This document shows positions 17,615-39,502 of a stretch of 64,000 nt of DNA, piece by piece. Position 1 is the first letter of the stretch; every line of letters begins with the position of its first letter. The notes below the pieces were generated by a model, which did not search any database, was not told the origin of the DNA, and saw only the letters and a list, made by a program, of their open reading frames with translations. This DNA is from Candidatus Poribacteria bacterium. Lineage in GTDB: Bacteria > Poribacteria > WGA-4E > WGA-3G. A program made the position numbers and the translations under genes. The stretch covers positions 800,001 to 864,000 of the forward strand of contig OZ242029.1 of the NCBI GenBank assembly GCA_965205015.1, written 5' to 3'.

Positions 17615-19333
17615 CTACTTCTGCCCGAGAACCTTCAGAAACTCTGGGTCATCCTTTACATCCGAAAATTCCGGAGTTTTAAGGAAAGACGGGTAGTAGC
17701 TATCCATATAATTGTAGGAACTAACTATATAATCGCTCTGAGCGATCTTCAAATGGTGTAAAGTCTTCTCTCGGTTTTTCTCAGATGCCCAGACGCTCAC
17801 AGCAAGCATGAAGTGATTATAATCGTTGTAATTTCCCAAATCGATGGCGAGTTGTAGCAAACGTTTCGCTTCATCATACCTCTTCGCCCATACCAGACAA
17901 CAACCGATATTATGAGCAGTACAAACAAGCTCATAGATATTTACGGGATAACCGGCACTCCGTTTTTCGACTTCTCCTTCAATAAACGTCCTTGTATCCA
18001 TCAAGACTCGATCGAAACGATCCCAATCTCCCTGTTTGCTATACACCCGAAGTCGATTCTCTCTTATCGCCAACCAGAATCGAAAATAACTCCGCCAACC
18101 CGGTTCGCCATTGGCACGTTCCAACTTTTCTATCTCAAGAAGTGCCGCATCTAACCTATCGTTCCTTATTAAGATATCTGATCCAAATTGCAGAAAATCG
18201 CAACGACTGTACTGACTCACTTCAGGGTTCTCTAAGCGTTCAGATGCCTCATTGTAAAGTTGAATCCAGTCATCAATACGGCCTTCCGCCGCCCAACATC
18301 CAGCAGTGTTCGGATTAGAAACAATCCGCAACACATATTTTTCTGAGTGCTTGCATGCCCAACGGTAAAGACGCGTCTGTTCCTCAATAGCTTCTTGATT
18401 TCTCCGAAGAAAAGCGAGGCTTTTGACTAACCTGTCATGTGCCCAGGAACGCTCCGTATCATCTGGAGTGTCATCCATATACTTCCGGAGTAGAGGGAGC
18501 CGTTTTTCCATGCCGAGACTGCCCATATACGGGTATATCTTATCAACCACAAGACGCACCAATTCAGGCGTAATTTCACCCTTAAGTGCATCTTCAATCT
18601 CGTTGGCGGCTTCCTTAAGAATATCCTCCCTTGATGCAGGGTCAGATTTCACTTTTTCCATGAATGCATCGAATTTGCTGCGAAGTTGCTCTAATTGATT
18701 CATAATATTCTCCTCCAGATTATCTGATAACGGTAAATGACCAAAGAATTCTTGATCCAAGAGTTCCGGATCTGTTTGTAAACGTTTTCGCGCCCGGTGG
18801 AGCCGACTCGCAATTGTGTTTACCGGCACGCCCAAAAATTTGCCGATCTCTTTCGTCGGCATTTCGTCAAGATAGTAGAGTGTTACGACCGTGCGTTCAT
18901 TTTCTGGCAGTTTTTCTAAAAGCTGTTGGACAAGATCACGGCAATACTCTGTTCTCTCCGTCATCCGCTGTTCTGACATGTGGTGTGTATAAGAGGATTC
19001 CTCAATTTCTTCCAAACGTGTGCCTTCCAAAGATTGCATCGCAGGCTTGTGCTTCTGTATCCTCTTTTGCTTTCGCATCCAATCAATGCAAAGCCGATTG
19101 GCGATGACATAGAGCCACCCAGCAAATTGATCGGGATTTTTAAGCGTCGAGAGTTTTTTGTATGCCTGAAGGAAGACTTCTTGCATAATATCCTCAGCGT
19201 AGTGATAATCGCCGATCTTCCGCCATACAAGGGTATGAACGCTCTTTCGGTACCTTTCGACCAAGATGCCAAACGCAGCGTCGTCCCCGGATAAAATTTT
19301 GCGAATCAGTTGAACATCGCTTTCTTTTTCCAC
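17615..19333 (-). CDS. ECF sigma-70 factor fused to TPR-like domain (paralog of 12516-14216)
   Basis: Regions 2 and 4 intact; GTG 19333 with SD GGAGG preferred over ATG 19411. Confidence 0.9.
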   Translation of the reverse strand: MEKESDVQLIRKILSGDDAAFGILVERYRKSVHTLVWRKIGDYHYAEDIMQEVFLQAYKKLSTLKNPDQFAGWLYVIANRLCIDWMRKQKRIQKHKPAMQSLEGTRLEEIEESSYTHHMSEQRMTERTEYCRDLVQQLLEKLPENERTVVTLYYLDEMPTKEIGKFLGVPVNTIASRLHRARKRLQTDPELLDQEFFGHLPLSDNLEENIMNQLEQLRSKFDAFMEKVKSDPASREDILKEAANEIEDALKGEITPELVRLVVDKIYPYMGSLGMEKRLPLLRKYMDDTPDDTERSWAHDRLVKSLAFLRRNQEAIEEQTRLYRWACKHSEKYVLRIVSNPNTAGCWAAEGRIDDWIQLYNEASERLENPEVSQYSRCDFLQFGSDILIRNDRLDAALLEIEKLERANGEPGWRSYFRFWLAIRENRLRVYSKQGDWDRFDRVLMDTRTFIEGEVEKRSAGYPVNIYELVCTAHNIGCCLVWAKRYDEAKRLLQLAIDLGNYNDYNHFMLAVSVWASEKNREKTLHHLKIAQSDYIVSSYNYMDSYYPSFLKTPEFSDVKDDPEFLKVLGQK

Positions 19334-19451
19334 GAAATTTCCTCCGAATAAATAGATTGGACCCTGTATACCCTCGCCAAAGCGTTTAATCAAATACCAA
19401 GTTTTATGCAATTAAGCAATATGAGGTAGTTTACACCTTCTATATATTAAA

Positions 19452-19596: not shown

Positions 19597-19938
19597 CTAA
19601 GCCGACAATCCAGCAACAGCAGCGTCCTCACTGTCAAAATGTTCAAACAGATTAACCACACGACTCAGAACAATGAGATTTCTGATATGTTTTCCGACAT
19701 TGATGACACCCACGCGTCCCTGTTTTCGCGACGCAGCAGCGTATGCCTCCATCAAGGTGCCAAGACCTGAACTATCGATCCGATTGACCTGCTCGAAATT
19801 GATGAGGATACGTGGGGTATCAGAAGCCTCTATTTGTGGCAAGATAACTTTCCGTAAGTCTGATACGGAGCGTCCGCCCACCTTTCCAGTGGGTTTCAAA
19901 ATCGAGATACCATTTTGCTGGCGAATTTGCGTTGTCAT
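19597..19938 (-). CDS. STAS-domain anti-anti-sigma factor
   Basis: ILINFEQVNRIDSSGLGTL with phosphorylatable Ser; SD AAGGAG. Confidence 0.9.
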   Translation of the reverse strand: MTTQIRQQNGISILKPTGKVGGRSVSDLRKVILPQIEASDTPRILINFEQVNRIDSSGLGTLMEAYAAASRKQGRVGVINVGKHIRNLIVLSRVVNLFEHFDSEDAAVAGLSA

Positions 19939-23454: not shown

Positions 23455-25665
23455 TCATGGCGATTCTGACAAATGCTCATCAAACCAAGAAAGCATCCGT
23501 TGCCAATAATCAGCCACATTCGGATAACGCCATGATGTGACTTGCGAATGTCCCTCACCTTCATAACGCGCTAAAACGGCCTTTTTTCCCAGTCTACGCA
23601 AGCCAGAGAACATTTCTCCTGCCTGTGGGACAGCAGGGACACCATCCAAGGCACCAACAACTAACAACAGCGGCGTCTCCACCTTGTCCAGAAAAAAGAT
23701 AGGGGAGTTTTCGATGTATCGGTCCTGGAACTCCCAGAGCGACCCACCCATTTTGCCCTGTCCTTTTTCTGCCCAATCGATCCACTGGCTATCTCCCTCT
23801 TCCGTCAAATGCCCATAGAAACTAATGAGATTCCCCACCGGCGCACTACTGACAGCTGCACTAAACCTTGATGTTTGTGTAATCAGAGCGTTGACGCAGT
23901 AACCTCCGTAACTGTGCCCCATTATTCCTAAACGGTTGGGATCGGCAATTCCCATATCAATTAGCGTATCTATACCAGAGAGCACCATCTCCGTCAACTC
24001 TCGGACCGGCGCGTTGGTTTCCATTGGGGTATCGGGAAGAAAGACGACGTAATCTTGCTTCGTCAGCAGAAAATTGCCCCCATAGCGATCTGTGCCGAAA
24101 TCGTTAAATTGATACGAGAGCAAAGAACCCCCGTAGACCTCCGTAATTAATGGATAGTGTTTGCCCTCTACATAGTCTGGTGGGAGCAGCAAGGCACCTC
24201 TAAGGTCTTTTCCAGAAGGTGTCTGCCAAGTGACGAGTTGAGAAGTCCCAAGTCGTTCTGTTTCAATATCTGGGTTCAGTCGAGTGAGTTGCTGTGGATT
24301 TTGAAAGTCGGTGTCCGCTACCCACACATCGGGCGCGTGATTTACGTCCTCAATGCTGTAGAAAATATCCCCCGTTTGAGGTGCAACATCCATGTTTCTA
24401 CCCATAGGATTATAATTACGCTTTTCCTGAACCAACCGTGTGATCTCGCGCGTTTTCAGATTGACGCGATGAAAACCGTGCTGTTCACTGTTTGAATGGA
24501 CGGTATGCATGTATATTGACTCGGTGCAGTCTGGCGACCAAACAGTGTCTGCTTCCGCTTGCCGAACAATTCGAACAACACGTCCATCAAATCCGTCTGT
24601 CAATTTTTCAATAGCGCGATCAGCGATCGTAATTCGCCAGAGATCCCCCCGGGCAACACAGAATAGGTGTTTACTATCAGAACTCCACAAAGGCGGATGC
24701 GAACTATTTGTTAGTTCAATATCGGTGTCTTGGGTGAGATTTAGTTGGCTACCGTCAACTGTCGAAATGAGGAAAAGCTCATCTTTTGCAGCCTTATTCT
24801 CTGTCGGAAACGCAACGTAGCGACCATCTGGCGACCAAGTAAACAAACGTCCCCATCCAGATTTCAGCGAGTCAGCAAGTAATTTCGGAGGTCCTCCATT
24901 TAGCGACGAAAGATAGAGTTCGTACAGTAGTTGAGCGTTACTTTCTAACCCTTGAAAACTCGTAAACGCCGCGGTCGCTCCATCAGGGGCAACACGGATA
25001 CCAGATGGATAGAGTCCCTGCGCTAACGTTTCGACTTCTCCTGTATCAACCCTTATCATCCCAAGGTCTGCGCGATATCGCGCGTCAAACCACGAAGTCC
25101 GCCGCGGTCGGAATTCATTTTCCGGTTGTCCAGCAATAGGACTCGCAAAGAGTGTTACCGATGCCTTTTCCTTGTCTGGAGGTGCTTCTTCATCTGTCTC
25201 CGCTTCTGAATGCAACCTAACGATAATACGTGTTCCATCAGGTGTCCAGAGCGGTGGCTGCGCCCTTGACAAAAACGGCTGAATCCTGACATCACTCGCG
25301 AGTCGTGGGACATCTTCGCCGACCTCCCATATCCACAATTGGGCTGTTTTATGCTTATCCGAATAAAAAGCCAATCTTTTTCCATCCGGAGACCAGGCAG
25401 GTCTATAACTTGTGCCCCAATTCGGCGTGAGATTTCGCGATTCGCCACTCTGAACATCGATGAGCCAAATTTCACTTCCTTCTTGCAAGCCAGCGATACC
25501 CGTTGGAAGATATGTTTTATCTCCGGCTCCTACGCGTTTTCTGAAATAACTTTGAACAGCAACAGCAAGTTGTGTTCCATCTGGTGAAACAGCAATTGGA
25601 TCAAATAGCGTGAGGAGTTCTATCGAGAGAATGTCCTCAATACCGCTAAAAAGGTCAGTGTGCAT
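23455..25665 (-). CDS. S9-family prolyl oligopeptidase / acylaminoacyl peptidase
   Basis: WSPDG propeller repeats, GHSYGG nucleophile, GALD, YEGEGH; ATG 25665 with SD AGGAGG. Confidence 0.92.
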   Translation of the reverse strand: MHTDLFSGIEDILSIELLTLFDPIAVSPDGTQLAVAVQSYFRKRVGAGDKTYLPTGIAGLQEGSEIWLIDVQSGESRNLTPNWGTSYRPAWSPDGKRLAFYSDKHKTAQLWIWEVGEDVPRLASDVRIQPFLSRAQPPLWTPDGTRIIVRLHSEAETDEEAPPDKEKASVTLFASPIAGQPENEFRPRRTSWFDARYRADLGMIRVDTGEVETLAQGLYPSGIRVAPDGATAAFTSFQGLESNAQLLYELYLSSLNGGPPKLLADSLKSGWGRLFTWSPDGRYVAFPTENKAAKDELFLISTVDGSQLNLTQDTDIELTNSSHPPLWSSDSKHLFCVARGDLWRITIADRAIEKLTDGFDGRVVRIVRQAEADTVWSPDCTESIYMHTVHSNSEQHGFHRVNLKTREITRLVQEKRNYNPMGRNMDVAPQTGDIFYSIEDVNHAPDVWVADTDFQNPQQLTRLNPDIETERLGTSQLVTWQTPSGKDLRGALLLPPDYVEGKHYPLITEVYGGSLLSYQFNDFGTDRYGGNFLLTKQDYVVFLPDTPMETNAPVRELTEMVLSGIDTLIDMGIADPNRLGIMGHSYGGYCVNALITQTSRFSAAVSSAPVGNLISFYGHLTEEGDSQWIDWAEKGQGKMGGSLWEFQDRYIENSPIFFLDKVETPLLLVVGALDGVPAVPQAGEMFSGLRRLGKKAVLARYEGEGHSQVTSWRYPNVADYWQRMLSWFDEHLSESP

Positions 25666-25675
25666 TATTTTCCTC

Positions 25676-26935
25676 CTATCTTGGGTCATCACACGCTTGA
25701 CTTTGTTTGCTGCCATCACCGATGCGGTTAGAACGAAATCCCGAGATGCTTCTTTCAACACTTCGGCGCAGCATCTCATCGCTGAGATGGAACGCCTCGC
25801 GTATTGTTATTGACAGTTTCTGCTGCTGCTCTATCGAATCGAGCAATTGCTGGTTTTGCACGACAACGACAGAATCAGCATTCTCTTGAATTTCCTGTAG
25901 CGAACGTTTCGCTTGTTCGGCGCGACGTTGACCCTCAAAGTTGAATGGACAGGTCACAACCCCTACAGCCAAAGCACCTTGCTCTCGGGCGAGAGAGGCG
26001 ATCAGAGGCGAAGCACCCGCTCCTGTTCCGCCCCCCATACCGGCGATAACGAAGACAATATCCGCGTCCGCAACGATGGCGTTGAGCGTTTCCCTGTCCT
26101 CCTCAGCCGCTTTTCTACCTATCTCTGGGTTCGCGCCACATCCAAGTCCTTGGGTAGTCTTAGCACCGATCTGCACCGGTGTTGCTTCAGGGTGCTTGTC
26201 AAGTGCTTGCTGGTCTGTATTCACGGCATAAAATTCAATGTCTGTCAAACCGTCTTCAATCATTCGTTTAACGGCGTTCCCGCCCGCGCTACCGACTCCA
26301 ATAACCTTGATTATAGTTTCGGTGCGTTTGGATTCTTCTCGTTTGGATGACATAGTTCTCCCTCTTTCAGGTTCGACACCGAACTCCCTGCGTAAGAGTT
26401 CACGTGTCTGTCTTAATTTGGTCTTGATTGTGCCTATCGCCAATCCGAGTTCAGTGTGGATCTCCTTGACGCTCCACAATTCCAGATAGTATAGGACCGC
26501 AACGCGGCGCACTTTATCTGGAAGGTGATGCACTGCTTCCCTTATAGCGTCGTAGTGTTCCGTTTCCCTGAAGCGTGCGACTGCATCTTGGTCGATACGA
26601 TCCGTCAGATCCGCATAACTATAAGGAATGTCGTTTCCGGAACGATCGGCAGCAGCATAGTACCGCTTGCAAGCGTTGTAAGCAATGCGATGCAGCCACC
26701 CCCCAAAACTCTCAACGCTCCGCAGTCCACTGATATTTTCCCAGACGGCTCTCCAGACATCCATGAGAATTTCTTCGGCATCGCGGGGTTGTCTCGAATG
26801 TGCGATAATCACTTTCCAGATGCGTCGACTATAACGCGACATCAGTTCTGCAAACGCTAATTCATCACCGGCTTGTGTAAGCCCAATGAGTTCTTCATCT
26901 GTTAGAATGGCGTGCGTTGATAGATCGTATCGCAT
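25676..26935 (-). CDS. ECF sigma-70 factor fused to truncated FtsZ GTPase domain
   Basis: aa 1-185 sigma regions 2/4; aa 195-419 IKVIGVGSAGGNAV, AVNTD, GLGCGANPEIG, AGMGGGTGAG, PFNFEG; no T7 loop or C-terminal domain. Confidence 0.9.
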   Translation of the reverse strand: MRYDLSTHAILTDEELIGLTQAGDELAFAELMSRYSRRIWKVIIAHSRQPRDAEEILMDVWRAVWENISGLRSVESFGGWLHRIAYNACKRYYAAADRSGNDIPYSYADLTDRIDQDAVARFRETEHYDAIREAVHHLPDKVRRVAVLYYLELWSVKEIHTELGLAIGTIKTKLRQTRELLRREFGVEPERGRTMSSKREESKRTETIIKVIGVGSAGGNAVKRMIEDGLTDIEFYAVNTDQQALDKHPEATPVQIGAKTTQGLGCGANPEIGRKAAEEDRETLNAIVADADIVFVIAGMGGGTGAGASPLIASLAREQGALAVGVVTCPFNFEGQRRAEQAKRSLQEIQENADSVVVVQNQQLLDSIEQQQKLSITIREAFHLSDEMLRRSVERSISGFRSNRIGDGSKQSQACDDPR

Positions 26936-27037
26936 AAACAGTTCCCAATTGATTTTAACCTAAAGAGTGGACTTTTTCGGAAGGTGGTTTAAAAAAAGAA
27001 AAATCGCTGTACTTTTCGCTACGCCTCTCACAGGGAC

Positions 27038-28489
27038 CTATACCTCCGAACGCAGGAAGACGAGGAAGGCTCCTGAAAGCGACACACCGAGCAGTAAAAT
27101 GAGTAACAGAATATCGACTATAGCGGGATTGAGCGTCTCCTGAAAAGACAACTTATCCTCAAACATTGGGATAGTCTCTGGTAAGACGGACCTTTCCGAC
27201 ATGCCTTTCCGGACACCCACGAAATGAAGGCTCTCTGGATCCGCCCGATCCATTTCAACGATGAAATTTCGGAAGTGTCGGATATGAAGGCGGCAGTGTT
27301 CTAAGAATTGCAAATGCCGATTAAAGCCTGTGCCTGCCATGGATTCAAGGGCATATTGGACAACCGCTGCAGGAGAGCATCGGGTTATCTGTCTTGCATG
27401 CAGGACTTGCGCACTTTGCGCAGCGAGATGCTGGCGACTCAGCCGCTCCCGAATCTCCATGTCTTTGTTAACGAACGCCTGTTGGATCTCCAATTCTGAA
27501 GTGTCTACCCCCGCAACTTCCTCCTGAGAGGTTTCTGCGGATTGACGGCGTTCTCTTAAAGTCTCCCTTTTATCCAGGAAATCGCTCCGAATTTGGTCGA
27601 AGGCGGTCCCCTTTGTCCTCTGAAATTGATGGTGCGTTTGAATCGGAGGCATCCATCTTGTGGAGAGTGTGCCGAGGGTTGACGGCATAAACACCACGAC
27701 AGTCACCCAGATGAGCAACAGGACAACCAGACTTAACCGACTTTCCCGAGTCATCGCCGAGATAATAAGCCCAATTGCGACGAAGATACCAGCATAGCAA
27801 GAAGCAATCAGCACGATCAGTCCTAAACGCCCCCAGTCTGCGCCGCTGAGCTGCGTCCAACTCTCGGTAGAAATGATGGCGAGATTGAATAACACGGCAC
27901 AATAGAAGGCAATGAGGACCGTGATGAGGGAGCCAAGGAACTTACCCATTAATAGAGTCGGGCGCGAAATCGAATTGGCAAGACACAGCCGCAGCGTCCC
28001 GCGTTCTCGTTCTCCGGAGAGCGCGTCAAAGGTAAACAGGAGCGGCATGAAAGAGAGCAGATAGGTCACAATAAAGACCCAATCGATCCCCGTGGCAGTG
28101 GGACGAAGATTGCTAATCGCCTCCATATTCAGACGTGGAACGCCCATCGACCAAATATAGGCAAGCCCGTATAACCGCCAGAAACCACCACTCACGCTTT
28201 CGTCCGGTAGTAAGGCGTCCCCGCCATCGGCGATGAAGGCGAGCGATGCGGGGCGTTTGTAAAGCTTACCGGGTCCCTTGTGTAGCAGTTCATACAACTG
28301 CGTTCGGGATTTCAATTCGGTCTGAGATGCGTTAACCTTCTCGGAATACTTTCGAACCCGTTCCGGATGGGTTCGAAGATGCACAACGGCATTGGTTACC
28401 ATTAATGCTACGAGGATGAACGTGGTTAAGGCAAAGCGGAGACTCGTGAGGTGGTCTAAAAGTTCGCGTCTGACAACATGCCAAATCAT
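27038..28489 (-). CDS. ABC-2 type permease (type B)
   Basis: WHVVRREL, FTFDALSGERERGTLRL; paralog of 14530-15936. Confidence 0.88.
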   Translation of the reverse strand: MIWHVVRRELLDHLTSLRFALTTFILVALMVTNAVVHLRTHPERVRKYSEKVNASQTELKSRTQLYELLHKGPGKLYKRPASLAFIADGGDALLPDESVSGGFWRLYGLAYIWSMGVPRLNMEAISNLRPTATGIDWVFIVTYLLSFMPLLFTFDALSGERERGTLRLCLANSISRPTLLMGKFLGSLITVLIAFYCAVLFNLAIISTESWTQLSGADWGRLGLIVLIASCYAGIFVAIGLIISAMTRESRLSLVVLLLIWVTVVVFMPSTLGTLSTRWMPPIQTHHQFQRTKGTAFDQIRSDFLDKRETLRERRQSAETSQEEVAGVDTSELEIQQAFVNKDMEIRERLSRQHLAAQSAQVLHARQITRCSPAAVVQYALESMAGTGFNRHLQFLEHCRLHIRHFRNFIVEMDRADPESLHFVGVRKGMSERSVLPETIPMFEDKLSFQETLNPAIVDILLLILLLGVSLSGAFLVFLRSEV

Positions 28490-28638
28490 TTATTAGTTCT
28501 CGATTATCAGTTTTCAGTTAAGAAGCCATCGGTTAGTTTCATATCATTTCTAAAAATAAGTATTGCATACGCGATTTTTCTGAAGGGATACACAGCGGAT
28601 TTTAACTTAAGCAAAACACCTATTAACTGACAACTATT

Positions 28639-30201
28639 CTACACTTCAACTTTGATAAAAATCAAAAATGTCGCCATGAACAGGACGATATTGGTGCATA
28701 ACAGCAAAAACAGTTCAGGTAGGGCGCGATGCGCGTTGATGCCGATTTCTGCTCGCTCGAAGTGAAAACGAGGGAGGACCGACCAGTCTATATCCGCTTG
28801 ATTTGGAGCAAACCACTGCAGGCTCGCGAACGCATCTCTCTCATGAAAGGTCCCAATGAGGGTGCGGCGGTACGCCTGCGCGGTTTGAATATAATCCACC
28901 ATGCTGTTTAAATCGGTGCCTGCCCATGCGGCGGTAGCAAACGTATAAAGGCTTGCCGGACTGAACTTCATGAGACGCTCATCCCATTGTGCTTGATGGA
29001 GGGTGGTCTGTGCTACCAACTGCTGGCCGACGAAACCGACTTCGTCGGCATTCCGGATGTGCAGGGAGGCGGCGAATGCATAATAACGGCGTAAGTGTGG
29101 CACTAAAGGGTGCGCTGTATCTTTCAGTTCAAGGTTAACCCGAGGGAAGTCCCCAAGGAAGAAATATCCTGCTCCACTAAAGAGACCTGAAAACGCTTCA
29201 GAATCTGAAAATATCGGAGACTCCCCCTTAAGCGGACTATTGGCTAAGAACCGGTGTCGTTCTCTATCCGCCGCTTCCCGAATCTGCGCTATCTGCTGCT
29301 CGGTGGATCTTTTTTTTCCACGCATGTCCGCGTCTGGATTCAAGGCAAAGCGGCTCCAATTTGGATAGACGAGCACTAAAATCACCCATAAGAACATACA
29401 GAGCATCAAGGAGGTAGCGGCACGACGGGCTATCGCGGAAACGAGCAGACCGATCAGATAGAAAACCGACAGATAGACGATTGTCATTAAAACAATGCCG
29501 CCAATTCGTAGAAAATCACTTCCACTGAATTGCAAGGAACGCGCGAAGGAACACTGAATCAGGGCAAGCAATAGACTCATCAACACGGGGAGTAGCAGGC
29601 AAACCATCGCCGCAATATATTTAGCAAACAGCACATTTCCTCGCCCGACGGGATGTGAGAGCACCAAACGCAAGGTCCCTGTCTCCCAATCTCCCGCAAT
29701 CGCGTCATAAGCGAAAAGCAGAGCGATCAGACTCAACACAACCTGAAAGATAAAGACCAGGTCTATCTGTGAAAAGAGATACAGATAGGGGTTATTTATC
29801 CCGAGCGGTGCCCCTGGACTTGAGAGGGACGGGACGCTGCCAGACACCCACTGTTCTTCCTCGGGTCTGACATCAACGATGGGATTTGAGAGGGCTGGCA
29901 CACTGTCAAACGCTATATCAAGCTCACTGCCAAAACGCGTTTCCAAGCCCGCGCTAAAGAGGCTCAGGGGGTTCGGAGGACGCTGAACCTTTAACTTTAA
30001 GACCGAATAGGTGGGGGTTGCCTCGACCTTCTCGCGATTTACCGCTTCTTTCTGACTATAGTCGGCGAGACGCTCTTCATGTGCACCGATTAAGACGAAC
30101 GTATTGGCAACGACAAGTAAGAGTGTAATGACCACCGCAGCAAAAAAACGCGCACTCATCAGATGAATCAAGAGTTCCTGGCGTATCAGGGTCCGTAACA
30201 T
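28639..30201 (-). CDS. ABC-2 type permease (type A)
   Basis: MLRTLIRQEL, RPPNPLSLF, FAYDAIAGDWETGTLRL; paralog of 16066-17577. Confidence 0.88.
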   Translation of the reverse strand: MLRTLIRQELLIHLMSARFFAAVVITLLLVVANTFVLIGAHEERLADYSQKEAVNREKVEATPTYSVLKLKVQRPPNPLSLFSAGLETRFGSELDIAFDSVPALSNPIVDVRPEEEQWVSGSVPSLSSPGAPLGINNPYLYLFSQIDLVFIFQVVLSLIALLFAYDAIAGDWETGTLRLVLSHPVGRGNVLFAKYIAAMVCLLLPVLMSLLLALIQCSFARSLQFSGSDFLRIGGIVLMTIVYLSVFYLIGLLVSAIARRAATSLMLCMFLWVILVLVYPNWSRFALNPDADMRGKKRSTEQQIAQIREAADRERHRFLANSPLKGESPIFSDSEAFSGLFSGAGYFFLGDFPRVNLELKDTAHPLVPHLRRYYAFAASLHIRNADEVGFVGQQLVAQTTLHQAQWDERLMKFSPASLYTFATAAWAGTDLNSMVDYIQTAQAYRRTLIGTFHERDAFASLQWFAPNQADIDWSVLPRFHFERAEIGINAHRALPELFLLLCTNIVLFMATFLIFIKVEV

Positions 30202-30266
30202 CGTTTTCCGTTGCCTCAATTCCACGGGTTCTACTACCGAATTAGATATTTTCCAGGGATAGGTGA

Positions 30267-32042
30267 TTAGGACTTCAAGAGCATCGGCATGATGAGGTGG
30301 ATATGTCCTTCCTCACCAACCGGCTTAACAATCACAGGATCCAACGCGCTCGAGAACTCCAATGCCAAAGACGCCGTTCCAATGTGCGTGAGCGCCTCTA
30401 TCAGCATCCGAGCATCGAGACCGACACGGATACTTCCAGTGCTGGACACCACTGCTAAGGTTTCCTGCTGCTCATCTATCTCAGAATCCCTCGGCGAAAT
30501 CCGAATCCGTTGTTCATCTATCTCTAAACAGACCGTCGGCGAAATCCGAATCTGTTGTTCATCTATCTCTAAACAGAGAGCAGGGCATTTCGGATCCGAA
30601 AATGCTGAAACCTGACGTGTTGCACGCAAAATCGGCGCTTTCTGCACAACTGTACGCATCTGAGGAGACTTTGGAAAGAGTTTCTCATACTTCGGATATT
30701 CACCGTCTACCAACTGCGCCGTCAACGTGGTTCGCTCATCCGCGAAAAGAATCTGGTTCGCAACGCGTGAAACCCGTACCTCCAAGGAATCAGCAAACGT
30801 TCGTTCAATATCTTTGACGGCTTTGAGCGGGACGATAAACCCATCGTTATCCTCAGACAACCTTAAGGGTTCACACCGTGCGATGGCAATCTGCTTGCCG
30901 TCGCATCCAACGACTTCGGTCCTGTCCTCAAGCAGGTTAAAATAGAGCCCGTTTAGAAAAGTCCGCCGGACTTTCTCCGTGGACGCAGCACATTCGGTTT
31001 TGTGGAGGATCGACCGCAGGATCTCTCCATCAATCGCAAATGCTCCCGGGTCAACAGAAGGGAGTTGTGGAAATTCCTCATCCGCAAGCCCGACGATTTT
31101 GTAAACGTCATCTCCAGAAGTGATTCTAACCCGACCGTCCGCTGTCTTTGTCACGTCTATCGGTTTCTCCGCGGGCCACGCTTTAACGATATCCCCTAAT
31201 TTTTGGGCGGGGACAGTGATCGCTCCCGCTTCTTTGACTGTCCCTTCAACCTTCATTCTGATGCCAATTTCCGTGTCCATCGCCATGCATTCAATCGTGC
31301 TTCCTTCCGCACGGATGAGAACGTTTGAGGGAATAGGTGAGGTATCCTGCCCACTCGTGACACGCTGCAGCATTTGTAAAGAAGTTAAAAGCGCATCCCT
31401 TTCAAAAGTTAATTTCATTCCAAAACCCCTATTCAAATATATTTGGGCGCGACGTTCGGGTTCAATTGTGAGGTCTAAGGCTTCCTGAATCATGAATTCA
31501 TACTGCTTTAACTGTTGTCGCGCACGTCGAAGCCGACTTTTAATCGTGTTTTCTGACACACCTAAAAAGTTACTTATTTCTGTGTAGGTCATCCCCTCAA
31601 GGTAGTGAAGCGTGATAGTTGTCCGATTGCTCTCCTTCAACCTCGCGAGCAGCTTTTCGACCACGTCGCGCCGCGCTTCAGCGAAGGTCCTCGCGTGTTC
31701 TGTCGCGATATACTGGGAATACGCCTCTGTCTCTACTTCAGAGATGTCAGTGTTTTCCAGCGGCTCAGTGTGCCGCTGGTTTTTTCGGAGCCAAGCGATA
31801 CAGAGACGATCCGCAATCACATAAACCCACCGTAGAAACCGCGTCGGATCTTCCAAGGTCTCTAATTTGTGATAGACTCGCAGGAAGGTTTCCTGCGTAA
31901 TATCTTCGGCGATATGGAAATCCCCAATTTTCCGCCATGCGAGCGCGTGAACCTGTTTCTGGTACTTTCTAACCAACCTTGAAAAGGCAGTTTCATCACC
32001 GGTGAGGACTCGTTGGATCAATGCAGCATCGTCGTTTCTCAT
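30267..32042 (-). CDS. ECF sigma-70 factor fused to DNA polymerase III beta clamp (DnaN)
   Basis: aa 1-190 sigma; aa 209-591 MKLTFERDALL, PAQKLGDIVK, ADEEFP, FLNGLYF, LVDGEYPKY, LIMPM. Confidence 0.9.
   Translation of the reverse strand: MRNDDAALIQRVLTGDETAFSRLVRKYQKQVHALAWRKIGDFHIAEDITQETFLRVYHKLETLEDPTRFLRWVYVIADRLCIAWLRKNQRHTEPLENTDISEVETEAYSQYIATEHARTFAEARRDVVEKLLARLKESNRTTITLHYLEGMTYTEISNFLGVSENTIKSRLRRARQQLKQYEFMIQEALDLTIEPERRAQIYLNRGFGMKLTFERDALLTSLQMLQRVTSGQDTSPIPSNVLIRAEGSTIECMAMDTEIGIRMKVEGTVKEAGAITVPAQKLGDIVKAWPAEKPIDVTKTADGRVRITSGDDVYKIVGLADEEFPQLPSVDPGAFAIDGEILRSILHKTECAASTEKVRRTFLNGLYFNLLEDRTEVVGCDGKQIAIARCEPLRLSEDNDGFIVPLKAVKDIERTFADSLEVRVSRVANQILFADERTTLTAQLVDGEYPKYEKLFPKSPQMRTVVQKAPILRATRQVSAFSDPKCPALCLEIDEQQIRISPTVCLEIDEQRIRISPRDSEIDEQQETLAVVSSTGSIRVGLDARMLIEALTHIGTASLALEFSSALDPVIVKPVGEEGHIHLIMPMLLKS
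30491..30580. repeat. 45-bp in-frame tandem duplication within the DnaN domain
   Basis: tcggcgaaatccgaatc(c/t)gttgttcatctatctctaaacaga x2; CLEIDEQxIRISP repeated. Confidence 0.9.
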
Positions 32043-32146
32043 TAGACATCTCCAAAAAGCTATTTTTATTCACGGAACTTATATAACTTATATAATATTA
32101 TACCAGAGGCGTTTTTCTCTTGAAACATCTATTTCTTATGAGGTCC

Positions 32147-33919
32147 TTACTGTTTTGGAGCGTCGGATGCCGCAAATTGTAAGTGGTACAACCGAGCATA
32201 GAGCCCGCCCTGCGCCAGCAACGCCTGATGCGTGCCTATTTCCACAATTTCGCCGTTCTCCATGGCAAGAATTACATCGGCATTTAGCACGGTAGACAAT
32301 CGGTGTGCGATCACAAACGAAGTCCTTCCCTCCATCAACCGCTCTAAGGCTTCCGTAACGACCCGTTCCGTCTCCGAGTCCAACGCGGAAGTGGCTTCAT
32401 CGAGCAGGAGAAGTTTCGGATTCCGAATCAGCACACGAGCGATAGCAATCCGTTGTCGTTCGCCACCGGAGAGCCGGATACCCCGTTCGCCTATCTCCGT
32501 GGCGTAGCCATCTGTGAGTTGCGTGATAAATCCGTGGGCGTTTGCGGCTGTAGCGGCGGCAATAATATCCTCTTTTCTCACGTCCTCTGGGTGTCGTGCA
32601 CCGATTCGGATGTTTTCCTCAATTGAACCCGAGAAGAGATAAGGGTCTTGAAACACTGTGCCGATCTGGGAGCGTAGGGCACTCAGATTGAGTGTCGCAA
32701 TATCGTGTTCATCAACACAAATCCGTCCGTGGGTAGGGGTGTAGAGACGTGGAATAAGGTTGAGAATCGTGCTTTTCCCTGCGCCGCTGGGTCCCACAAG
32801 TGCAGCGATTTGACCCGGCAACACCTCAAAACTGACGTTCTGCAGGACTTTCGAGGTTTCGTTATAACCGAAGTGGACAGCATCAAACCGGACCTGTCCC
32901 CGCAAATCAACATCCTCAATACCATCAGTCGGTTCGGTTCGGTTTTCATCCAAAAAGGTAAAAACCCGTTTTGCCCCCTCACCTGTCCTCAGAAGCGTTT
33001 GATATCCATTTTGGGCTTGGTATAGGGGAACGGTGAGTAGATTCAAATAACGATTTGCCATCCATAAAAACCCGAGACTGATGTGTCCATCAAGCACCAT
33101 TTTTCCACCGATAAAAAAGAAAAGCGGATTGCCCACCCAAGAAGCAAGGGCACCCAATGCTGTCAACCCTCCGATTAACTTTTGATGGACTTCTGCACGA
33201 ATGAGGGTCTCTATTGAACGTCGGATGAATCCCATATCTCTCATCTCATGTCCAAGGGATTTAATCTCCCGGGACCCCCCAATGCCTTCTTGGAGCCGTG
33301 ACGAAATACTTTCCCTTTCCTGTAAGACCTGCTTTGAAGCGTTTTGGACAGGCCTTCGGAAGAGAACCGGGAGACCGACCACAGCGAGGGTAAACGGAAT
33401 ACTAAACAGACCCAACCATGGACTCACCCAGAACACAACGGTCAGGGTAACAGCAAATTCAATTCCTGCAAGGATAATCCACCCGCTCGTCAAAATCCCC
33501 TCAGCGGCAGAGGCTGTATCGGAATCGATGTAAGCCATGATCTGCCCGGTTGTGTGGTCATCGTAAAAACGGCACGGTAAGAATCGCAGATGTTGGTAGA
33601 CCTGCAGTTGCATATCACGGCGGGTTTGACCTGTGACCTTTGCCAAAAAATACGCGAATCCAACCGATGTGAGATAAGTGACGGTCGCAATAGCCATCCA
33701 TGACCCAACAAGAATTGGCAGAAAATCGGCATCTTTCTCACCAATGACACGGTCAAAAAACTGTCCTTCCATCCATGGGAAGACCAGAAAGGTCGCGCGC
33801 ATGCCGCCTTGGAAGAGCAGACACAAAAGGGCTAACCCCCAATACGGTTTGAGGTAACCTAACAAACGGACAGCAATTCTGCCACTTCCCAAATTTCCCT
33901 TCTTTTTCGACGCATCCAA
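32147..33919 (-). CDS. ABC exporter, fused TMD+NBD (MsbA/MdlB-like)
   Basis: GPSGAGKS, LSGGERQ, LLDEATSALD, AHRLST. Confidence 0.93.
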   Translation of the reverse strand: MDASKKKGNLGSGRIAVRLLGYLKPYWGLALLCLLFQGGMRATFLVFPWMEGQFFDRVIGEKDADFLPILVGSWMAIATVTYLTSVGFAYFLAKVTGQTRRDMQLQVYQHLRFLPCRFYDDHTTGQIMAYIDSDTASAAEGILTSGWIILAGIEFAVTLTVVFWVSPWLGLFSIPFTLAVVGLPVLFRRPVQNASKQVLQERESISSRLQEGIGGSREIKSLGHEMRDMGFIRRSIETLIRAEVHQKLIGGLTALGALASWVGNPLFFFIGGKMVLDGHISLGFLWMANRYLNLLTVPLYQAQNGYQTLLRTGEGAKRVFTFLDENRTEPTDGIEDVDLRGQVRFDAVHFGYNETSKVLQNVSFEVLPGQIAALVGPSGAGKSTILNLIPRLYTPTHGRICVDEHDIATLNLSALRSQIGTVFQDPYLFSGSIEENIRIGARHPEDVRKEDIIAAATAANAHGFITQLTDGYATEIGERGIRLSGGERQRIAIARVLIRNPKLLLLDEATSALDSETERVVTEALERLMEGRTSFVIAHRLSTVLNADVILAMENGEIVEIGTHQALLAQGGLYARLYHLQFAASDAPKQ

Positions 33920-36079: not shown

Positions 36080-37033
36080 TCAATCAGTTTCTTCGGATGT
36101 AGGTTTCTCTACAGCGTCCGCATTCAAGTATTTCAGTGGACTCTCAACAATATAATCCCCCGAATCCTCAAGGAACTGCTGCACCAGAAAGATATGTCCG
36201 GCACCCATCATCAACAGAATGCGATCATCGGCAGATTCGGTGATCCGCGTTATATTCACGAAAATCTTGAGATTTCTATCATACCAAATATGGACAAGCC
36301 AATTCACCGCCGGATATTCGTCCCCCAATCCAACACGCGCATCATGTAAATATGCTCGCTGGCTTGCCCGGCTCCATGTCGGCTGATTCAGACGTATAAG
36401 CATGTCAGTTATTGGCTCATATTTCTCCGGTTCAATCCAGACTGTACCATCCTCATCCACTATAACTTTTCCTGGATCTACGGGATGGGATCCGAGGAGG
36501 TGCTCCTGATTATGTTTTTTGGCAAAGTCAATTGTGTTTATCAAATTACTATCAATACCACCTCTAAAGATTGGATTGTCTTTACTGCTTCGGAAATAAT
36601 CCACACAGTATATCTTTGAATGTCCCAGTTGTTTTGCTAACCGAAAGCCAATCTGGTGCCCTTCGTTACGTCTCAGTTGAAATATTCCCTCCAGATAACC
36701 TTGGTAATCTGAATTAATTTCAGCATCCCGTGAGAAATCCACTTCCATTGCTATCTTGGTAGGACTAAACGCCTTGAGTTGTTCGATTAACTGCTGAATC
36801 TCGCGTTGGCGTTTGGGGGCAAGGACATCATCCATTTTGAGATTGATGCCATCCATTCCGGGATTCGATAAGTGTGCAGTACCGAGAATCATGATTGTGG
36901 GTTTTTGGGTCATTTGCGTAGTACCTCCTGTAGACAAGTCTGTCTGATCATTGCTTATGGCTGTACCGACTGTAAGCAATAAAGCGACGAATGACATCAT
37001 CAAATAGAATTGGCATTTTACTAAGACTTTCAT
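36080..37033 (-). CDS. DUF5694-like (TIKI/TraB/EreA-ChaN superfamily) hydrolase with signal peptide
   Basis: ILGTAH, IAME, WYDRN, GAGH; ORF extends in frame to 37171 through a sigma remnant. Confidence 0.8.
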   Translation of the reverse strand: MKVLVKCQFYLMMSFVALLLTVGTAISNDQTDLSTGGTTQMTQKPTIMILGTAHLSNPGMDGINLKMDDVLAPKRQREIQQLIEQLKAFSPTKIAMEVDFSRDAEINSDYQGYLEGIFQLRRNEGHQIGFRLAKQLGHSKIYCVDYFRSSKDNPIFRGGIDSNLINTIDFAKKHNQEHLLGSHPVDPGKVIVDEDGTVWIEPEKYEPITDMLIRLNQPTWSRASQRAYLHDARVGLGDEYPAVNWLVHIWYDRNLKIFVNITRITESADDRILLMMGAGHIFLVQQFLEDSGDYIVESPLKYLNADAVEKPTSEETD

Positions 37034-37071
37034 AAAACTTTTTCCTATTTTCCGCTGTGCGGTTGATTCGA

Positions 37072-37171
37072 TTATATCCTCCACATCTTCCCGATTTCCG
37101 AGTAGATAGAGGATGTGCTGATAAACCTGAACTTTGTGTTGATAGATAAGCTCAAATTTATCTTCTGTCAT
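37072..37171 (-). pseudogene. N-terminal remnant of duplicated ECF sigma gene
   Basis: MTEDKFELIYQHKVQVYQHILYLLGNREDVEDI matches the start of 48656-49201; DNA 37072-37236 homologous to 49099-49266. Confidence 0.85.
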
Positions 37172-37202
37172 ATTGCATTTCAGCGCATTTCGAGGTTACT
37201 GT

Positions 37203-37231
37203 TACTACAAACGAGTTCCAAAATAGTTGCA
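37203..37231 (-). promoter_or_regulatory. Putative ECF promoter, motif B
   Basis: TGCAAC-N16-TGTAGTA. Confidence 0.7.
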
Positions 37232-37329
37232 CTTTTCCCAACTCAATATATAACGTGAATTCAACTGAGGACCGTAGTGAGGCGTTGGGTTCCGTTAGAT
37301 GTGTTTATCCGAAGCGACATTTGAAAAAA

Positions 37330-39330
37330 TTAGAACGCACGGATCACCTTAGCAACTAACCGCTGTTTGAATTCTTGGGCATTTGGGTCGCCGAGGATGA
37401 TGAAGAAGTCGGTGCCAGCGTACCCGGAGCGGCGCAGTGCGAAGTAGACGTTAATGCCTTCTACTTGCCAGATTAACCGACTTCCGAGACTTAAGGCAGG
37501 TGTGAAATCATAAGCAAGGGTTAGAATCTGCTGGTATCGCTGCTCGAAATGCCACTGGACTTGTGAAGTCAAACCAGCAGTGAAGCCATAAGCACGCACA
37601 TTCAGGTTTCCACTGATTTGATAAATCGGTTCACCCGCTTGTTCACCCCACTCATAATCGATACTCACGTTGTTGAAGCGATCCGAAGCACGGGCTCCCA
37701 AGCTGATCCCGAACACAGAATCTGTGAATTCTCTAAATCGACCGCCGTTCCAGAAAGTCGTAACTGAATAGTCACTGTGTGTCAAGAGTTGCGTGGCAAA
37801 CCTGATGTCGCGACTGAAAACTTCACCTTCATAGGTATTGGTAGCATCGGTATGCGCAAAGAGCATAAGACTGCGAACGATCCCCTCGCGCCACTCGTTC
37901 TTGAACGTAGCACCGAAATTTACACCGCGATACCCTTTGAAGGGATGGTAGCCGAGATTATTGACGAAATCCGGATCTACAAAAAAAACATTTGAATAGG
38001 ATTGAATGAGGGGACCGTTGTATCTCAAACCGAGGGTCCCATCTCTTCCATCTGACTCATCCGCCCAACTTTGGGTAAAATCACCGTGGACTGAAAATCT
38101 ACCGTGTCGCGCACTACCCGATACATGGCCCACATTGTTCAACGGATCGCCTCGTTTGTGATGTGATAAGAACATAGCACTGATTTTGGATGTCGCTGTA
38201 AGGGGTTGGGAGGCACTCAGGATGAAGTTCTGGTTATTTCGATGGTAAGTGCCTAAGGTACCGATGGAGGTGTTTTTCCCCAGTTTCCCAAAGAGTTTAA
38301 GCCCACCGTCCATATCCTCTATCCGTCGTGAGTGAAAAAGGTTGCCAAATGCCCCGGTGTTATAGACATTGCCACCTTCAGAAAAGAAAGGCCGGCGGTC
38401 TGAGACATAACGTTCACCGTAAGAGAAATCAATACCCTCTACCGCTTGTTCGACATTCTCAAAATCCGGGTTGACAGTGCCGATGAGCCGTAGTTGGGGC
38501 GTAACCTCATAACGGAGGTCTGCACCCGCGCGGGCAGTGGATTCCCTTCGCGACCCGGAGGTCGCTCCCACAGAAGTTTCCGTTTCGCTGATACCCCCAA
38601 TGAGATACGGTAGTATCTTGAGTTCGCGTTTTCGAGGCGGTGGCAGAACCCCGACCCAGTGGCCATCGTTCTCTTTAAATTCGTTTACCCCTAAGTTGGA
38701 CCACCACGATTTTTCGCCTGTCCGCTGCTGCTGGCGATCAAGGTTGATACCCATCCCAAGGGGTTCAGTAGTTTCGGGGTAATCCAGCATCTGCCACGGG
38801 ATTTCCATCTCCACGATCCAGCCGTCTTCCACAATCTGTGCGGCGGTTTTCCACAATCCGATCCATTCGCTTTTCTCCGCACGTCCGGTGGCGAGATGCG
38901 CGTATTTCGTGCCGAGTGGATTTACGATGAAGAAATTTCTGTCCGAAAACTGGTGCGTGTGGAACGGGTCAAGACTGAAAGATACCGAGTCTTCGCCTTG
39001 AAACCGGGTCTGATCTTTGGTTTGACGGGCGACAATTTTATCGGGCACATCATCGTAGAGATGCAGCCCAACATAAATGGCGGTGTCTGTATAAACCAGA
39101 TGCCCCACAGATTGGTTTTTCGCCGGCTTTTCGGTACGTTCATCAATGAAGGTATTCGCTTCCGGTGCGTCTTGCCAGCATTTATCATCAAGGACGCCGT
39201 CGATGGTAGGTGGGTGTTCCGTTTTAACTGCAGGAAGTTCTTTTTTTATCGCTGTGTCGTTTGAAACCGCCCAGAGCTGAGAGCCTATGGTGAGTGTTAA
39301 GGTGATAATGATTAACAAATTTCCTTTCAT
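37330..39330 (-). CDS. CBM9-like/DUF5916 outer-membrane protein (paralog of 21198-23270)
   Basis: Signal peptide MKGNLL...QLWA, PTIDGVLDD, C-terminal KVIRAF. Confidence 0.8.
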   Translation of the reverse strand: MKGNLLIIITLTLTIGSQLWAVSNDTAIKKELPAVKTEHPPTIDGVLDDKCWQDAPEANTFIDERTEKPAKNQSVGHLVYTDTAIYVGLHLYDDVPDKIVARQTKDQTRFQGEDSVSFSLDPFHTHQFSDRNFFIVNPLGTKYAHLATGRAEKSEWIGLWKTAAQIVEDGWIVEMEIPWQMLDYPETTEPLGMGINLDRQQQRTGEKSWWSNLGVNEFKENDGHWVGVLPPPRKRELKILPYLIGGISETETSVGATSGSRRESTARAGADLRYEVTPQLRLIGTVNPDFENVEQAVEGIDFSYGERYVSDRRPFFSEGGNVYNTGAFGNLFHSRRIEDMDGGLKLFGKLGKNTSIGTLGTYHRNNQNFILSASQPLTATSKISAMFLSHHKRGDPLNNVGHVSGSARHGRFSVHGDFTQSWADESDGRDGTLGLRYNGPLIQSYSNVFFVDPDFVNNLGYHPFKGYRGVNFGATFKNEWREGIVRSLMLFAHTDATNTYEGEVFSRDIRFATQLLTHSDYSVTTFWNGGRFREFTDSVFGISLGARASDRFNNVSIDYEWGEQAGEPIYQISGNLNVRAYGFTAGLTSQVQWHFEQRYQQILTLAYDFTPALSLGSRLIWQVEGINVYFALRRSGYAGTDFFIILGDPNAQEFKQRLVAKVIRAF

Positions 39331-39473: not shown

Positions 39474-39502
39474 TACTACAAATGGGACGGGAAAAAGTTG
39501 CA
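39474..39502 (-). promoter_or_regulatory. Putative ECF promoter, motif B
   Basis: TGCAAC-N16-TGTAGTA with a spacer diverged from the other copies. Confidence 0.75.

Follow-up and report, generated by a model that had tools for sequence, protein, structure and literature searches.

In-frame fusions of ECF sigma factors to paralogues of FtsZ and the beta sliding clamp form a conserved family in sponge-associated Poribacteria

This report concerns two neighbouring genes in a 64,000-nt stretch of DNA from a Candidatus Poribacteria bacterium (GenBank assembly GCA_965205015.1, contig OZ242029.1, positions 800,001 to 864,000 of the forward strand), hereafter the window, of which position 1 is the first letter. 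Each gene encodes an extracytoplasmic function (ECF) sigma factor that continues, in the same reading frame, into a paralogue of an essential cell-cycle protein: the division GTPase FtsZ in one case (sigma-FtsZ) and the beta sliding clamp DnaN in the other (sigma-DnaN). Between the two lies a pair of ABC-2 family permease genes (Table 1). A first-pass annotation, made from the letters of the sequence alone, had proposed this very arrangement, and both the open reading frames (ORFs) and the Pfam matches bear it out. Such fusions constitute a conserved and diversified family that is present in most genomes of a large clade of sponge-associated Poribacteria.

Table 1. Genes, domains and sequence signals of the fusion locus (window coordinates).
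Feature	Position	Strand	Evidence
ECF sigma factor fused to FtsZ N-terminal GTPase domain (sigma-FtsZ), 419 aa	25676..26935	-	ORF, Pfam, NCBIfam
Sigma70_r2 of sigma-FtsZ, residues 31-98	26642..26845	-	PF04542, E 2.3e-09; helical, predicted local distance difference test (pLDDT) ~70-88 in AlphaFold2 (AF2) model
Sigma70_r4_2 of sigma-FtsZ, residues 129-180	26396..26551	-	PF08281, E 9.7e-08
In-frame ATG, Met195 (26351-26353), with purine-rich Shine-Dalgarno-like motif, in linker	26351..26371	-	conservation
Tubulin/FtsZ GTPase domain of sigma-FtsZ, residues 209-368, then helix H7	25832..26311	-	PF00091, E 1.1e-44
Promoter-like element TTTAAACC-N18-CTCTTT upstream of sigma-FtsZ gene	26962..26993	-	conservation
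ABC-2 family permease with DUF3526	27038..28489	-	PF12679 (E 1.5e-29), PF12040
ABC-2 family permease with DUF3526, 41 nt downstream of sigma-DnaN	28639..30225	-	PF12679 (E 4.4e-32)
ECF sigma factor fused to three-domain beta sliding clamp (sigma-DnaN), 591 aa	30267..32042	-	ORF, Pfam, NCBIfam
In-frame ATG, Met209 (31416-31418), at clamp native start, with AGGGG/GGAG motif	31416..31436	-	conservation
Beta-clamp domains I-III of sigma-DnaN, residues 209-591	30270..31418	-	PF00712, PF02767, PF02768 (Pfam span 209-587)
Tandem duplication of ~15 residues (CLEIDEQQIRISP / CLEIDEQRIRISP) in clamp domain III	30492..30575	-	translation
ABC half-transporter (membrane domain and ATPase), upstream neighbour	32147..33919	-	PF00664, PF00005
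S9 prolyl-oligopeptidase-family protein with PD40 repeats, downstream neighbour	23455..25779	-	PF00326, PF07676

The N-terminus of sigma-FtsZ is recognised by the sigma70-ECF model TIGR02937 with 71.0 bits against a cut-off of 42.9, and after region 4 the chain runs on in frame for about 225 aa. This extension aligns to residues 19-201 of Staphylococcus aureus FtsZ, where most nucleotide-binding loop motifs match: GVGSAGGNAV, GMGGGTGAGA, NTD and PFNFEG are all present, which we take to represent the glycine-rich T1 loop, the GGGTG signature, and the NTD and PF.FEG motifs of the FtsZ GTP-binding site. Pfam returns no FtsZ_C match for this protein, the chain stopping after helix H7, and an alignment with full-length copies places the T7 loop, the C-terminal subdomain and the C-terminal peptide beyond its end; the housekeeping copies in the same alignment have GEINVDFAD and a C-terminal DWEIPAFLR. 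The score against the ftsZ equivalog model TIGR00065 (239.7 bits) falls under the cut-off of 295.2, since the match is limited to profile positions 7-200 of 353. The first-pass description of this part as a divergent copy of the division GTPase was thus right about its derivation from FtsZ and too generous about its extent, since only the N-terminal GTP-binding domain and helix H7 are there. In the AF2 model (mean pLDDT 74, predicted template modelling score (pTM) 0.49) the sigma part is helical, the FtsZ domain is confident (pLDDT ~90), and linker residues 188-205 fall below a pLDDT of 50.

The clamp fusion is the more complete of the two. Its sigma part matches Sigma70_r2 at residues 23-90 and Sigma70_r4_2 at 127-178, with 100.2 bits for TIGR02937 (same cut-off), and the in-frame extension of about 385 aa aligns over its full length to solved clamps and passes the dnan equivalog model TIGR00663 (193.8 bits, cut-off 137.65). 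All of the more specific NCBIfam sigma models remain below cut-off for both window fusions. The duplication in clamp domain III is an insertion relative to the solved clamps and to another clamp fusion described below (L153), and is confined to the window protein and its closest relatives, which measure 591 aa against the usual 576 aa. Two motifs that presumably line the protein-binding cleft of the clamp, TDG[HK]RLA and MPMRL in their canonical form, read CDGKQIA and a C-terminal MPMLL in the window protein, and they vary among orthologues as well (TNGVQLA, ADGIQLA, MPMSL, MPKKL, CTMLL); one standalone DnaN paralogue retains TDGKRLA and MPMRL. These two pocket motifs are less well conserved than the blocks of sigma-DnaN that were inspected, which lie in the N-terminal region and domains II and III.

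Both fusions recur far beyond the window. The best 120 clusters listed for each protein all share its fused domain combination, at identities of 75-94% for sigma-FtsZ and 69-94% for sigma-DnaN; many lie on contigs of several Mb, and those that are named belong to Candidatus Poribacteria. A scan of species-representative genomes gave 79 loci, 76 of them titled Poribacteria and the other three "uncultured bacterium." Within the phylum, a match spanning sigma and FtsZ domains (E 1e-90 or better) occurs in 97 of 175 Poribacteria genomes and, by listing order, appears confined to genomes G073-G175 and G001-G005, with no match in any listed genome G006-G025 nor in 58 further genomes of the phylum. 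Full-length sigma-DnaN is found at an identity of at least 59% in 49 of the 175 and at 45-46% in three more, about 52 in all, and a few other Poribacteria genomes have truncated forms. The first-pass observation is thus confirmed, and it extends further than described there. In a search of 1.84 billion cluster representatives, very few clusters at 50% identity matched the sigma half and the extension together. One of these, a distant 456-aa sigma-FtsZ-N protein (P0266), 36% identical to that of the window, is the single member of its cluster and comes from a 2-kb contig; its FtsZ part groups with another FtsZ lineage, which suggests an independent fusion. Public annotation labels the fusions "sigma-70 family RNA polymerase sigma factor" or "DNA polymerase III subunit beta."

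All 48 sigma-FtsZ and 31 sigma-DnaN orthologues that were extracted have an open frame, and insertions and deletions in the linker always keep the frame. Contigs from four public sequencing runs (three studies) cover the region and bridge the sigma-DnaN junction, with no differences in two runs, three in the third and 23 in the fourth, which represents a diverged strain. At the sigma-FtsZ junction (26335-26380) depth is present in all four runs, and among the contig pieces listed none clearly spans it.

Housekeeping genes were examined in five complete chromosomes of relatives, which stand in for the genome of the window. Each has an ftsA-ftsZ pair, two or three standalone dnaN genes and one full-length dnaE in addition to the fusion genes, in agreement with the earlier expectation of separate housekeeping ftsZ and dnaN copies. 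The housekeeping FtsZ of these relatives has the Tubulin and FtsZ_C domains and the C-terminal peptide; the fused FtsZ domain is about 63% identical to it, and identity between the fused and the standalone clamps is 54-63%. The fused copies group as one clade (support 97/92) in a tree of FtsZ N-domains, apart from the housekeeping FtsZ of Poribacteria (95/93). Median omega values (Nei-Gojobori, over 48 sigma-FtsZ-N and 31 sigma-DnaN genes) are 0.154 for the sigma part, 0.42 for the linker, 0.170 for the FtsZ domain and 0.63 for the tail of sigma-FtsZ-N, and 0.137 for the sigma part, 0.22 for the linker and 0.275, 0.208 and 0.400 for clamp domains I, II and III of sigma-DnaN. The low values in the extensions imply that selection maintains them, and the purifying selection across the domains (omega 0.14-0.40) speaks against the neutral decay that the first-pass annotation had named as a refuting outcome. 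In matching genome pairs, omega is 0.03-0.10 for housekeeping FtsZ against 0.165-0.19 for the fused domain, and about 0.04-0.06 for canonical DnaN against 0.29-0.36 for the fused clamp. The extensions are thus maintained, with weaker or partly diversifying constraint than the housekeeping copies.

Set against these data, an artefact is practically excluded as the origin of the fusions. The candidates would be a chimera made in assembly, a stop codon lost to a sequencing error, or neighbouring genes in frame by chance. One observation fits the last of these: the downstream domain retains its native methionine and a motif like a ribosome-binding site, as adjacent genes would. The same open frame, however, stands in more than 100 database clusters per protein, complete chromosomes included, the indels preserve it, the sigma-DnaN junction is bridged in three studies and both halves are under selection; the cluster, genome-scan and contig evidence refutes an artefact for practical purposes.

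Two further features of these genomes deserve mention in their own right. Synonymous divergence in the fusion genes is about half of that in housekeeping ftsZ and dnaN (pairs among G001, G003, G004 and G005; 0.29 against 0.80 for G001-G003), which may reflect exchange of the island between lineages or constraint at the nucleotide level. The five complete genomes also hold two types of standalone dnaN (L100, L102, L103 and L099 as opposed to L105, L106 and L108), one of which retains TDGKRLA and MPMRL, whereas the other is variable at the first motif (TDMRWLA, TDAIRLA, MDTHYLA) and has an omega about twice as high.

The sigma domains of the two window fusions are only 25-30% identical, which indicates that they belong to two ECF lineages and that the fusions arose independently. 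The lineage of sigma-FtsZ, whose members begin MRYD, carries a variety of extensions. The form seen in the window, with the FtsZ N-domain only, accounts for 49 of the 79 loci; others carry a full FtsZ (556-561 aa), a full FtsZ followed by the replicative polymerase subunit DnaE (1350-1743 aa, with PHP, polymerase core, fingers and HhH domains) or a WD40 propeller (about 830-900 aa). The triple fusion of sigma, full FtsZ and DnaE was located at L095:7320-11372, L096:5102-9199(-), L097:8056-13287 and in L051-L053, in a conserved position flanked by a TatD/permease pair and a gene for a solute-binding protein, and the scan of the phylum gave many matches within open frames of about 1350-1450 aa. 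The L095 protein passes the ftsZ cut-off (325.2 bits for TIGR00065). Fused full FtsZ has the T7 loop and lacks the C-terminal peptide. The fused DnaE covers profile positions 3-800 of 1151, and is thus without the C-terminal third; it retains PDIDIDF and shows 80% identity to the housekeeping DnaE encoded in its own genome. An identification with the error-prone polymerase DnaE2 was rejected, as the error-prone model gave 559 bits and the replicative DnaE models 985 and 964. The sigma-full FtsZ form ends in a remnant of the DnaE N-terminus and is therefore probably derived from the triple fusion.

The modules also cross between lineages. In L153 (3762-5504, minus strand) a three-domain clamp is fused to a sigma domain that is 73% identical to that of sigma-FtsZ-DnaE, and it occupies the syntenic site (TatD, permease, sigma-X, solute-binding protein) that elsewhere holds sigma-FtsZ-DnaE. 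Three of the 175 Poribacteria genomes, outside the set that bears the sigma fusions, encode a 706-aa fusion of DnaN to full FtsZ with no sigma domain (L165:7066-9186(-)), followed by a sigma-54 activator (L165:5313-6389(-)) that has AAA+ and helix-turn-helix domains only and no sensor domain; a 670-aa protein that matches no family comes next. FtsZ, DnaN and DnaE modules have been shuffled between sigma lineages, a pattern that fits interchangeable sensor or bait modules. Tandem FtsZ-FtsZ fusions of 731-840 aa, with two Tubulin and FtsZ_C units, were seen besides (P0247, P0250, P0260 and P0263). A 1429-aa open frame with a clamp in G155 was discarded as a fusion, being an M16 peptidase gene and a standalone dnaN.

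The linkers of both fusions, about 20 residues long, carry what resembles a second start of translation. Met195 is nearly invariant among sigma-FtsZ orthologues and Met209 is invariant in 31 of 31 sigma-DnaN orthologues, and the motifs ahead of both are conserved at the nucleotide level, persisting where the amino acids change. Arginine ahead of Met195 is always encoded by AGA or AGG (35 of 35 and 30 of 30 cases, compared with 26% gene-wide); glycine codons in the motif are GGR in 38 of 39 (40% gene-wide), and the glycine at codon -4 of sigma-DnaN is GGA in 30 of 30. Median pairing energies are -8.5 kcal/mol at Met195 (top 2.2% of codon positions) and -6.6 at Met209 (top 3.3%), equal in strength to those of true gene starts in the window. 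Within the FtsZ-type lineage the motif and ATG follow region 4 in most members examined whatever the extension, WD40 included; the site is missing at that methionine in one of nine FtsZ-type genes checked, and a few WD40 forms give a weaker signal. The clamp fusion in L153 keeps the lineage methionine and has a second Shine-Dalgarno-like motif and ATG further on, ahead of the clamp. It seems from this pattern that the extension may also be translated alone.

A promoter-like element is likewise shared by the FtsZ-type lineage. Its consensus, TTTAAACC-N18-CTCT(T/A)T, is found some 35 nt ahead of the start codon, with at least 85% conservation across 47 distinct upstream sequences (48 genes); the same motif precedes 9 of 9 genes for sigma-full FtsZ, sigma-FtsZ-DnaE and the related sigma-DnaN, and 21 of 24 sigma-WD40 genes. 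In the window it has a single match, ahead of the sigma-FtsZ gene. The bare pattern is not enriched in whole genomes (7 matches against 8 for the control in G001; 41 against 59 in four genomes), and only matches with a T-rich/CC-AAAA spacer are specific. Three of the seven matches in G001 have this extended motif, two before sigma-fusion genes and one as a duplicated copy at an insertion beside sigma-FtsZ-N; in the other four complete genomes, 10 of 30 loci examined lie directly upstream of sigma genes of this lineage. Among L184 (G005:C1:2018316-2021345), L169, L173 and L176, one such promoter stands about 160 nt before a MacB-like permease gene and three stand 350-450 nt before second-lineage sigma genes, one with BNR-like repeats by eye, which may point to a small regulon or a sigma cascade. 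On the whole, the placement of the element suggests autoregulation, and few other targets have emerged so far. The candidate motif upstream of sigma-DnaN (TATAAGTTCC) is not over-represented in the window relative to chance, and a general scan of 25300-32300 for sigma-70 promoters and terminators gave sites no more numerous than in shuffled sequence.

These results bear on the earlier proposal that the fusions switch on the exporters and hydrolases around them. For sigma-FtsZ it is not supported: within the window the promoter lies only before the gene itself, and the genes downstream vary: an S9 peptidase, a DUF5916 protein or a MacB-like permease, depending on the genome. For sigma-DnaN it is no more than suggested by the ABC-2 pair, which lies directly 3' (less than 100 nt) of the gene in 11 of the 18 loci where sigma-DnaN occurs near sigma-FtsZ-N. 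A Pfam scan of the window ORFs found no anti-sigma domain among the immediate neighbours of the fusions; the sole domain of that type is a zf-HC2 at 47997-48659, beside another sigma factor, and a STAS protein is encoded at 19597-19938. No biosynthetic genes were seen among the scanned ORFs of the window.

The wider surroundings are rich in transport and hydrolytic functions. The flanks of the fusion pair also carry a CBM9/DUF5916 protein and a MacB-like permease, and the ABC half-transporter upstream falls below the cut-off of every NCBIfam exporter family. The neighbouring S9 peptidase is not conserved between related loci; its longest ORF overlaps the end of sigma-FtsZ by about 100 nt, so that the true start is probably further in, and it shows a sub-threshold likeness to Atxe2-family lasso-peptide isopeptidases (120.8 bits, cut-off 400). 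The layout recurs at 12516-19411, where a further ABC-2 permease pair (14530-15936 and 16066-17577) stands between two ECF sigma genes that are paralogues of each other (12516-14216 and 17615-19411); the C-terminal extensions of these sigma factors are helical, measure about 380 aa and match no Pfam family, and their upstream regions have a long conserved block in common that includes TTCGTC. Elsewhere in the window, two more proteins containing ABC ATPases are encoded at 39714-43279, and five DUF5694 paralogues lie within 36080-49201, four of them consecutive at 43349-47275 and followed by two DUF4252 proteins, the zf-HC2 anti-sigma factor and a plain ECF sigma factor (48656-49201). In one related locus (L005:8900-9990), two small minus-strand genes that by eye resemble a toxin-antitoxin pair are inserted between the ABC-2 permease and sigma-FtsZ-N, and the lineage promoter is repeated beyond them, on the side away from sigma-FtsZ-N.

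Judged by its domains and distribution, the window pair belongs to a Poribacteria-specific set of putative one-component ECF sigma factors in which a paralogue of a cell-cycle hub would replace the usual anti-sigma or sensor partner. The reading that we prefer for the extension, at somewhat less than an even chance, is that it serves as the sensory or regulatory module of such a sigma factor, a mimic of a divisome or replisome hub that engages the native assembly or the molecules that target it. Each gene would yield two products, sigma-X and free X. The X part would mimic the native protein and co-assemble with native FtsZ filaments or clamp rings; alternatively, it would bind molecules aimed at the native hubs, such as competitor, phage or natural-product inhibitors. 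Its engagement would decide whether the tethered sigma factor joins RNA polymerase, and the first output would be more of the gene's own products, to which sigma-DnaN might add the co-directional ABC-2 permease pair. We favour this reading because three hubs have been recruited, swapped and combined in one chain, which a common target or hub nature explains more easily than a common location. Mimicry itself can be inferred from the 80% identity of the fused DnaE, its PDIDIDF motif, the match of most nucleotide-binding motifs of FtsZ and the T7 loop kept in the fused full FtsZ. A more specific proposal, which we consider unlikely, is that the extensions act as integrated decoys, that is, look-alikes of FtsZ, the beta clamp and Pol III alpha that would serve as baits to sense inhibitors (a small molecule, peptide, toxin or phage protein), the answer being more bait and export. 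The bait idea of the first-pass annotation is compatible with the data.

Several points weigh against the sensory reading. In the AF2 model (pTM 0.49) each half is well folded, and sigma factor and extension are not predicted to touch; the exporter genes next to the fusions in the window lack the lineage promoter. An FtsZ domain that lacks the T7 loop should cap filaments and could be harmful to the cell. Variation in the clamp motifs could equally mean that binding of the normal partners and the loader has been lost, and the sister paralogues with WD40 or helical extensions imply that the extension may be a generic interaction module. With respect to the internal start, the motif could instead be a conserved feature of the peptide, and the pairing energies were computed with a generic anti-Shine-Dalgarno sequence that may not be the host's own. 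Finally, none of the public runs that match the region is recorded as RNA.

The main rival, which we hold to be somewhat unlikely, reverses the logic: the extension would be no bait and would instead couple transcription positively to the cell cycle. Here sigma-DnaN would be loaded on DNA as a dimer, with itself or with a free clamp, and act as a DNA-tracking activator of its own holoenzyme, a covalent version of T4 gp45/gp55 or of Mu MuC and the clamp, and sigma-FtsZ would sit in the Z ring or be released from it in each cycle. That the clamp part has three domains and passes the dnan equivalog cut-off, that its inspected blocks are better conserved than the pocket motifs and that the fused full FtsZ retains the T7 loop would all be expected of working parts; an internal start would supply partner subunits for a heterodimeric ring, and clamp-activated transcription is established for T4 and Mu. 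It is harder to reconcile with the variable cleft motifs of sigma-DnaN, the cleft being where clamp loader and polymerase bind, and with a fused DnaE that lacks its C-terminal third, which holds the clamp- and tau-binding parts of that protein. The window FtsZ part, moreover, cannot extend a filament, single chains of FtsZ-DnaE and DnaN-FtsZ are hard to assign to one cellular site, and the genomic context is one of export and hydrolysis and not of the cell cycle.

There are two other explanations, each of which we regard as decidedly unlikely. One holds that the free paralogue made from the internal start is the useful product, be it a spare or inhibitor-insensitive clamp or polymerase or an FtsZ domain that acts as a sponge or division brake, and that the sigma factor is a self-activating switch for this payload. 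The conserved Shine-Dalgarno-like motif and ATG speak for it, as do a lineage promoter found almost only before these genes and clamp pocket motifs unlike those of the canonical copy; there is precedent also in cited passages on antibiotic producers, where a second dnaN confers self-resistance (PMC10817943), and on nargenicin, which targets DnaE1 (PMC8922275). Yet the sigma-X frame is open in every orthologue examined, linker indels notwithstanding, which implies selection for the fused protein itself; FtsZ-N and a truncated DnaE cannot replace the native proteins, and the scanned window ORFs show no biosynthetic genes. The other explanation, for which the prospects seem just as poor, sees the FtsZ, clamp and polymerase folds as mere scaffolds, neofunctionalised for oligomerisation or protein binding with no tie to division or replication. 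WD40 propellers or helical repeats at the same position in sister paralogues, an omega three to eight times that of the housekeeping copies, and the lost FtsZ C-terminal peptide and DnaE C-terminus are consistent with this view. A generic fold, however, would hardly lead to repeated recruitment and recombination of three replisome and divisome proteins, and it sits uneasily with the retention of most FtsZ nucleotide-binding motifs, the T7 loop and PDIDIDF, and with a fused DnaE that is still 80% identical to the housekeeping copy.

The stakes differ with the reading. If the extensions engage inhibitors, this would be a new principle of sensing through mimics of the target. As integrated decoys, they would be a bacterial counterpart, at the level of transcription, of the integrated decoys of plant nucleotide-binding leucine-rich repeat (NLR) receptors, set in a chemically hostile sponge holobiont, and would amount to a ready-made biosensor for new inhibitors of FtsZ, DnaN and DnaE, three validated antibiotic targets. 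If instead they engage the native machines, a single protein would link transcription to the replisome or divisome in a cellular organism, clamp-linked transcription being known so far from phages T4 and Mu. The apparent internal start would add a further layer in which two proteins come from one gene.

The nearest parallels in known systems are each partial. In Bacillus, the SpoIIE-FtsZ-sigma F circuit also ties the activity of an alternative sigma factor to the division machinery, as the cited passages describe it (PMC10990147, PMC5373596); that coupling is indirect, through an FtsZ-binding phosphatase and an anti-sigma partner switch, whereas here the FtsZ domain lies inside the sigma polypeptide. 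In late transcription of phage T4 (gp55, co-activator gp33, clamp gp45), which according to the cited passages is clamp-activated and couples transcription to replication (PMC2988020, PMC7892883), and in phage Mu, where MuC is described as using the host beta clamp and a wider use of clamps in transcription is suggested (the portion cited of PMC12867686), a specificity or transcription factor is functionally joined to a clamp. In those phages a separate protein makes the connection through a short clamp-binding peptide, in contrast to a clamp fused covalently to a cellular ECF sigma factor; the clamp cleft motifs vary among sigma-DnaN orthologues, and the likeness is one of architecture only. 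Target copies for self-resistance (griR and mypR, each a second dnaN), which are reported from biosynthetic clusters for the DnaN-binding mycoplanecins and griselimycin (PMC10817943, in the part cited), share with the fusions a duplicated inhibitor target apart from the housekeeping gene; the copy is here fused to a transcription factor, with no biosynthetic cluster seen among the scanned window ORFs.

Membership of a known anti-phage defence system was rejected, as PADLOC models gave no match at E 1e-5 or better for the five proteins scanned (sigma-FtsZ, sigma-DnaN, sigma-FtsZ-DnaE, the sigma factor with a helical extension and DnaN-FtsZ). The integrated decoys of plant immune receptors are target-like domains built into a sensor protein, the design that the decoy proposal would extend to sigma factors. 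The closest relatives in architecture are the ECF sigma factors with C-terminal extensions, which include ECF41 and ECF56 (SnoaL-like), ECF42 (TPR) and ECF57 (WD40-like; in the part cited of PMC8999054); 19 ECF groups have extensions, and C-terminal ones typically accompany missing anti-sigma factors, according to the passages cited from PMC7826278. FtsZ, tubulin, clamp and polymerase III are words absent from the main text of the ECF re-classification paper and of a review of non-canonical ECF sigma factors, whose supplementary domain tables may bear on the point, and full-text literature searches found no prior description of such sigma fusions; the earlier claim that FtsZ and DnaN are not among the characterised ECF extensions is upheld within these sources. 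ECF sigma factors with a built-in sensor are thus known, and a sensor made from a copy of FtsZ, clamp or polymerase is apparently undescribed. The fusions share with the extension-type ECF sigma factors a core of sigma2 and sigma4 with an in-frame domain, the lack of an anti-sigma domain among scanned neighbours, and sister paralogues with WD40 or helical repeats; they differ in that a paralogue of an essential cell-cycle protein (FtsZ, beta clamp or Pol III alpha) serves as the extension, that extensions have been swapped and combined between lineages, and that the linker carries a conserved internal start signal.

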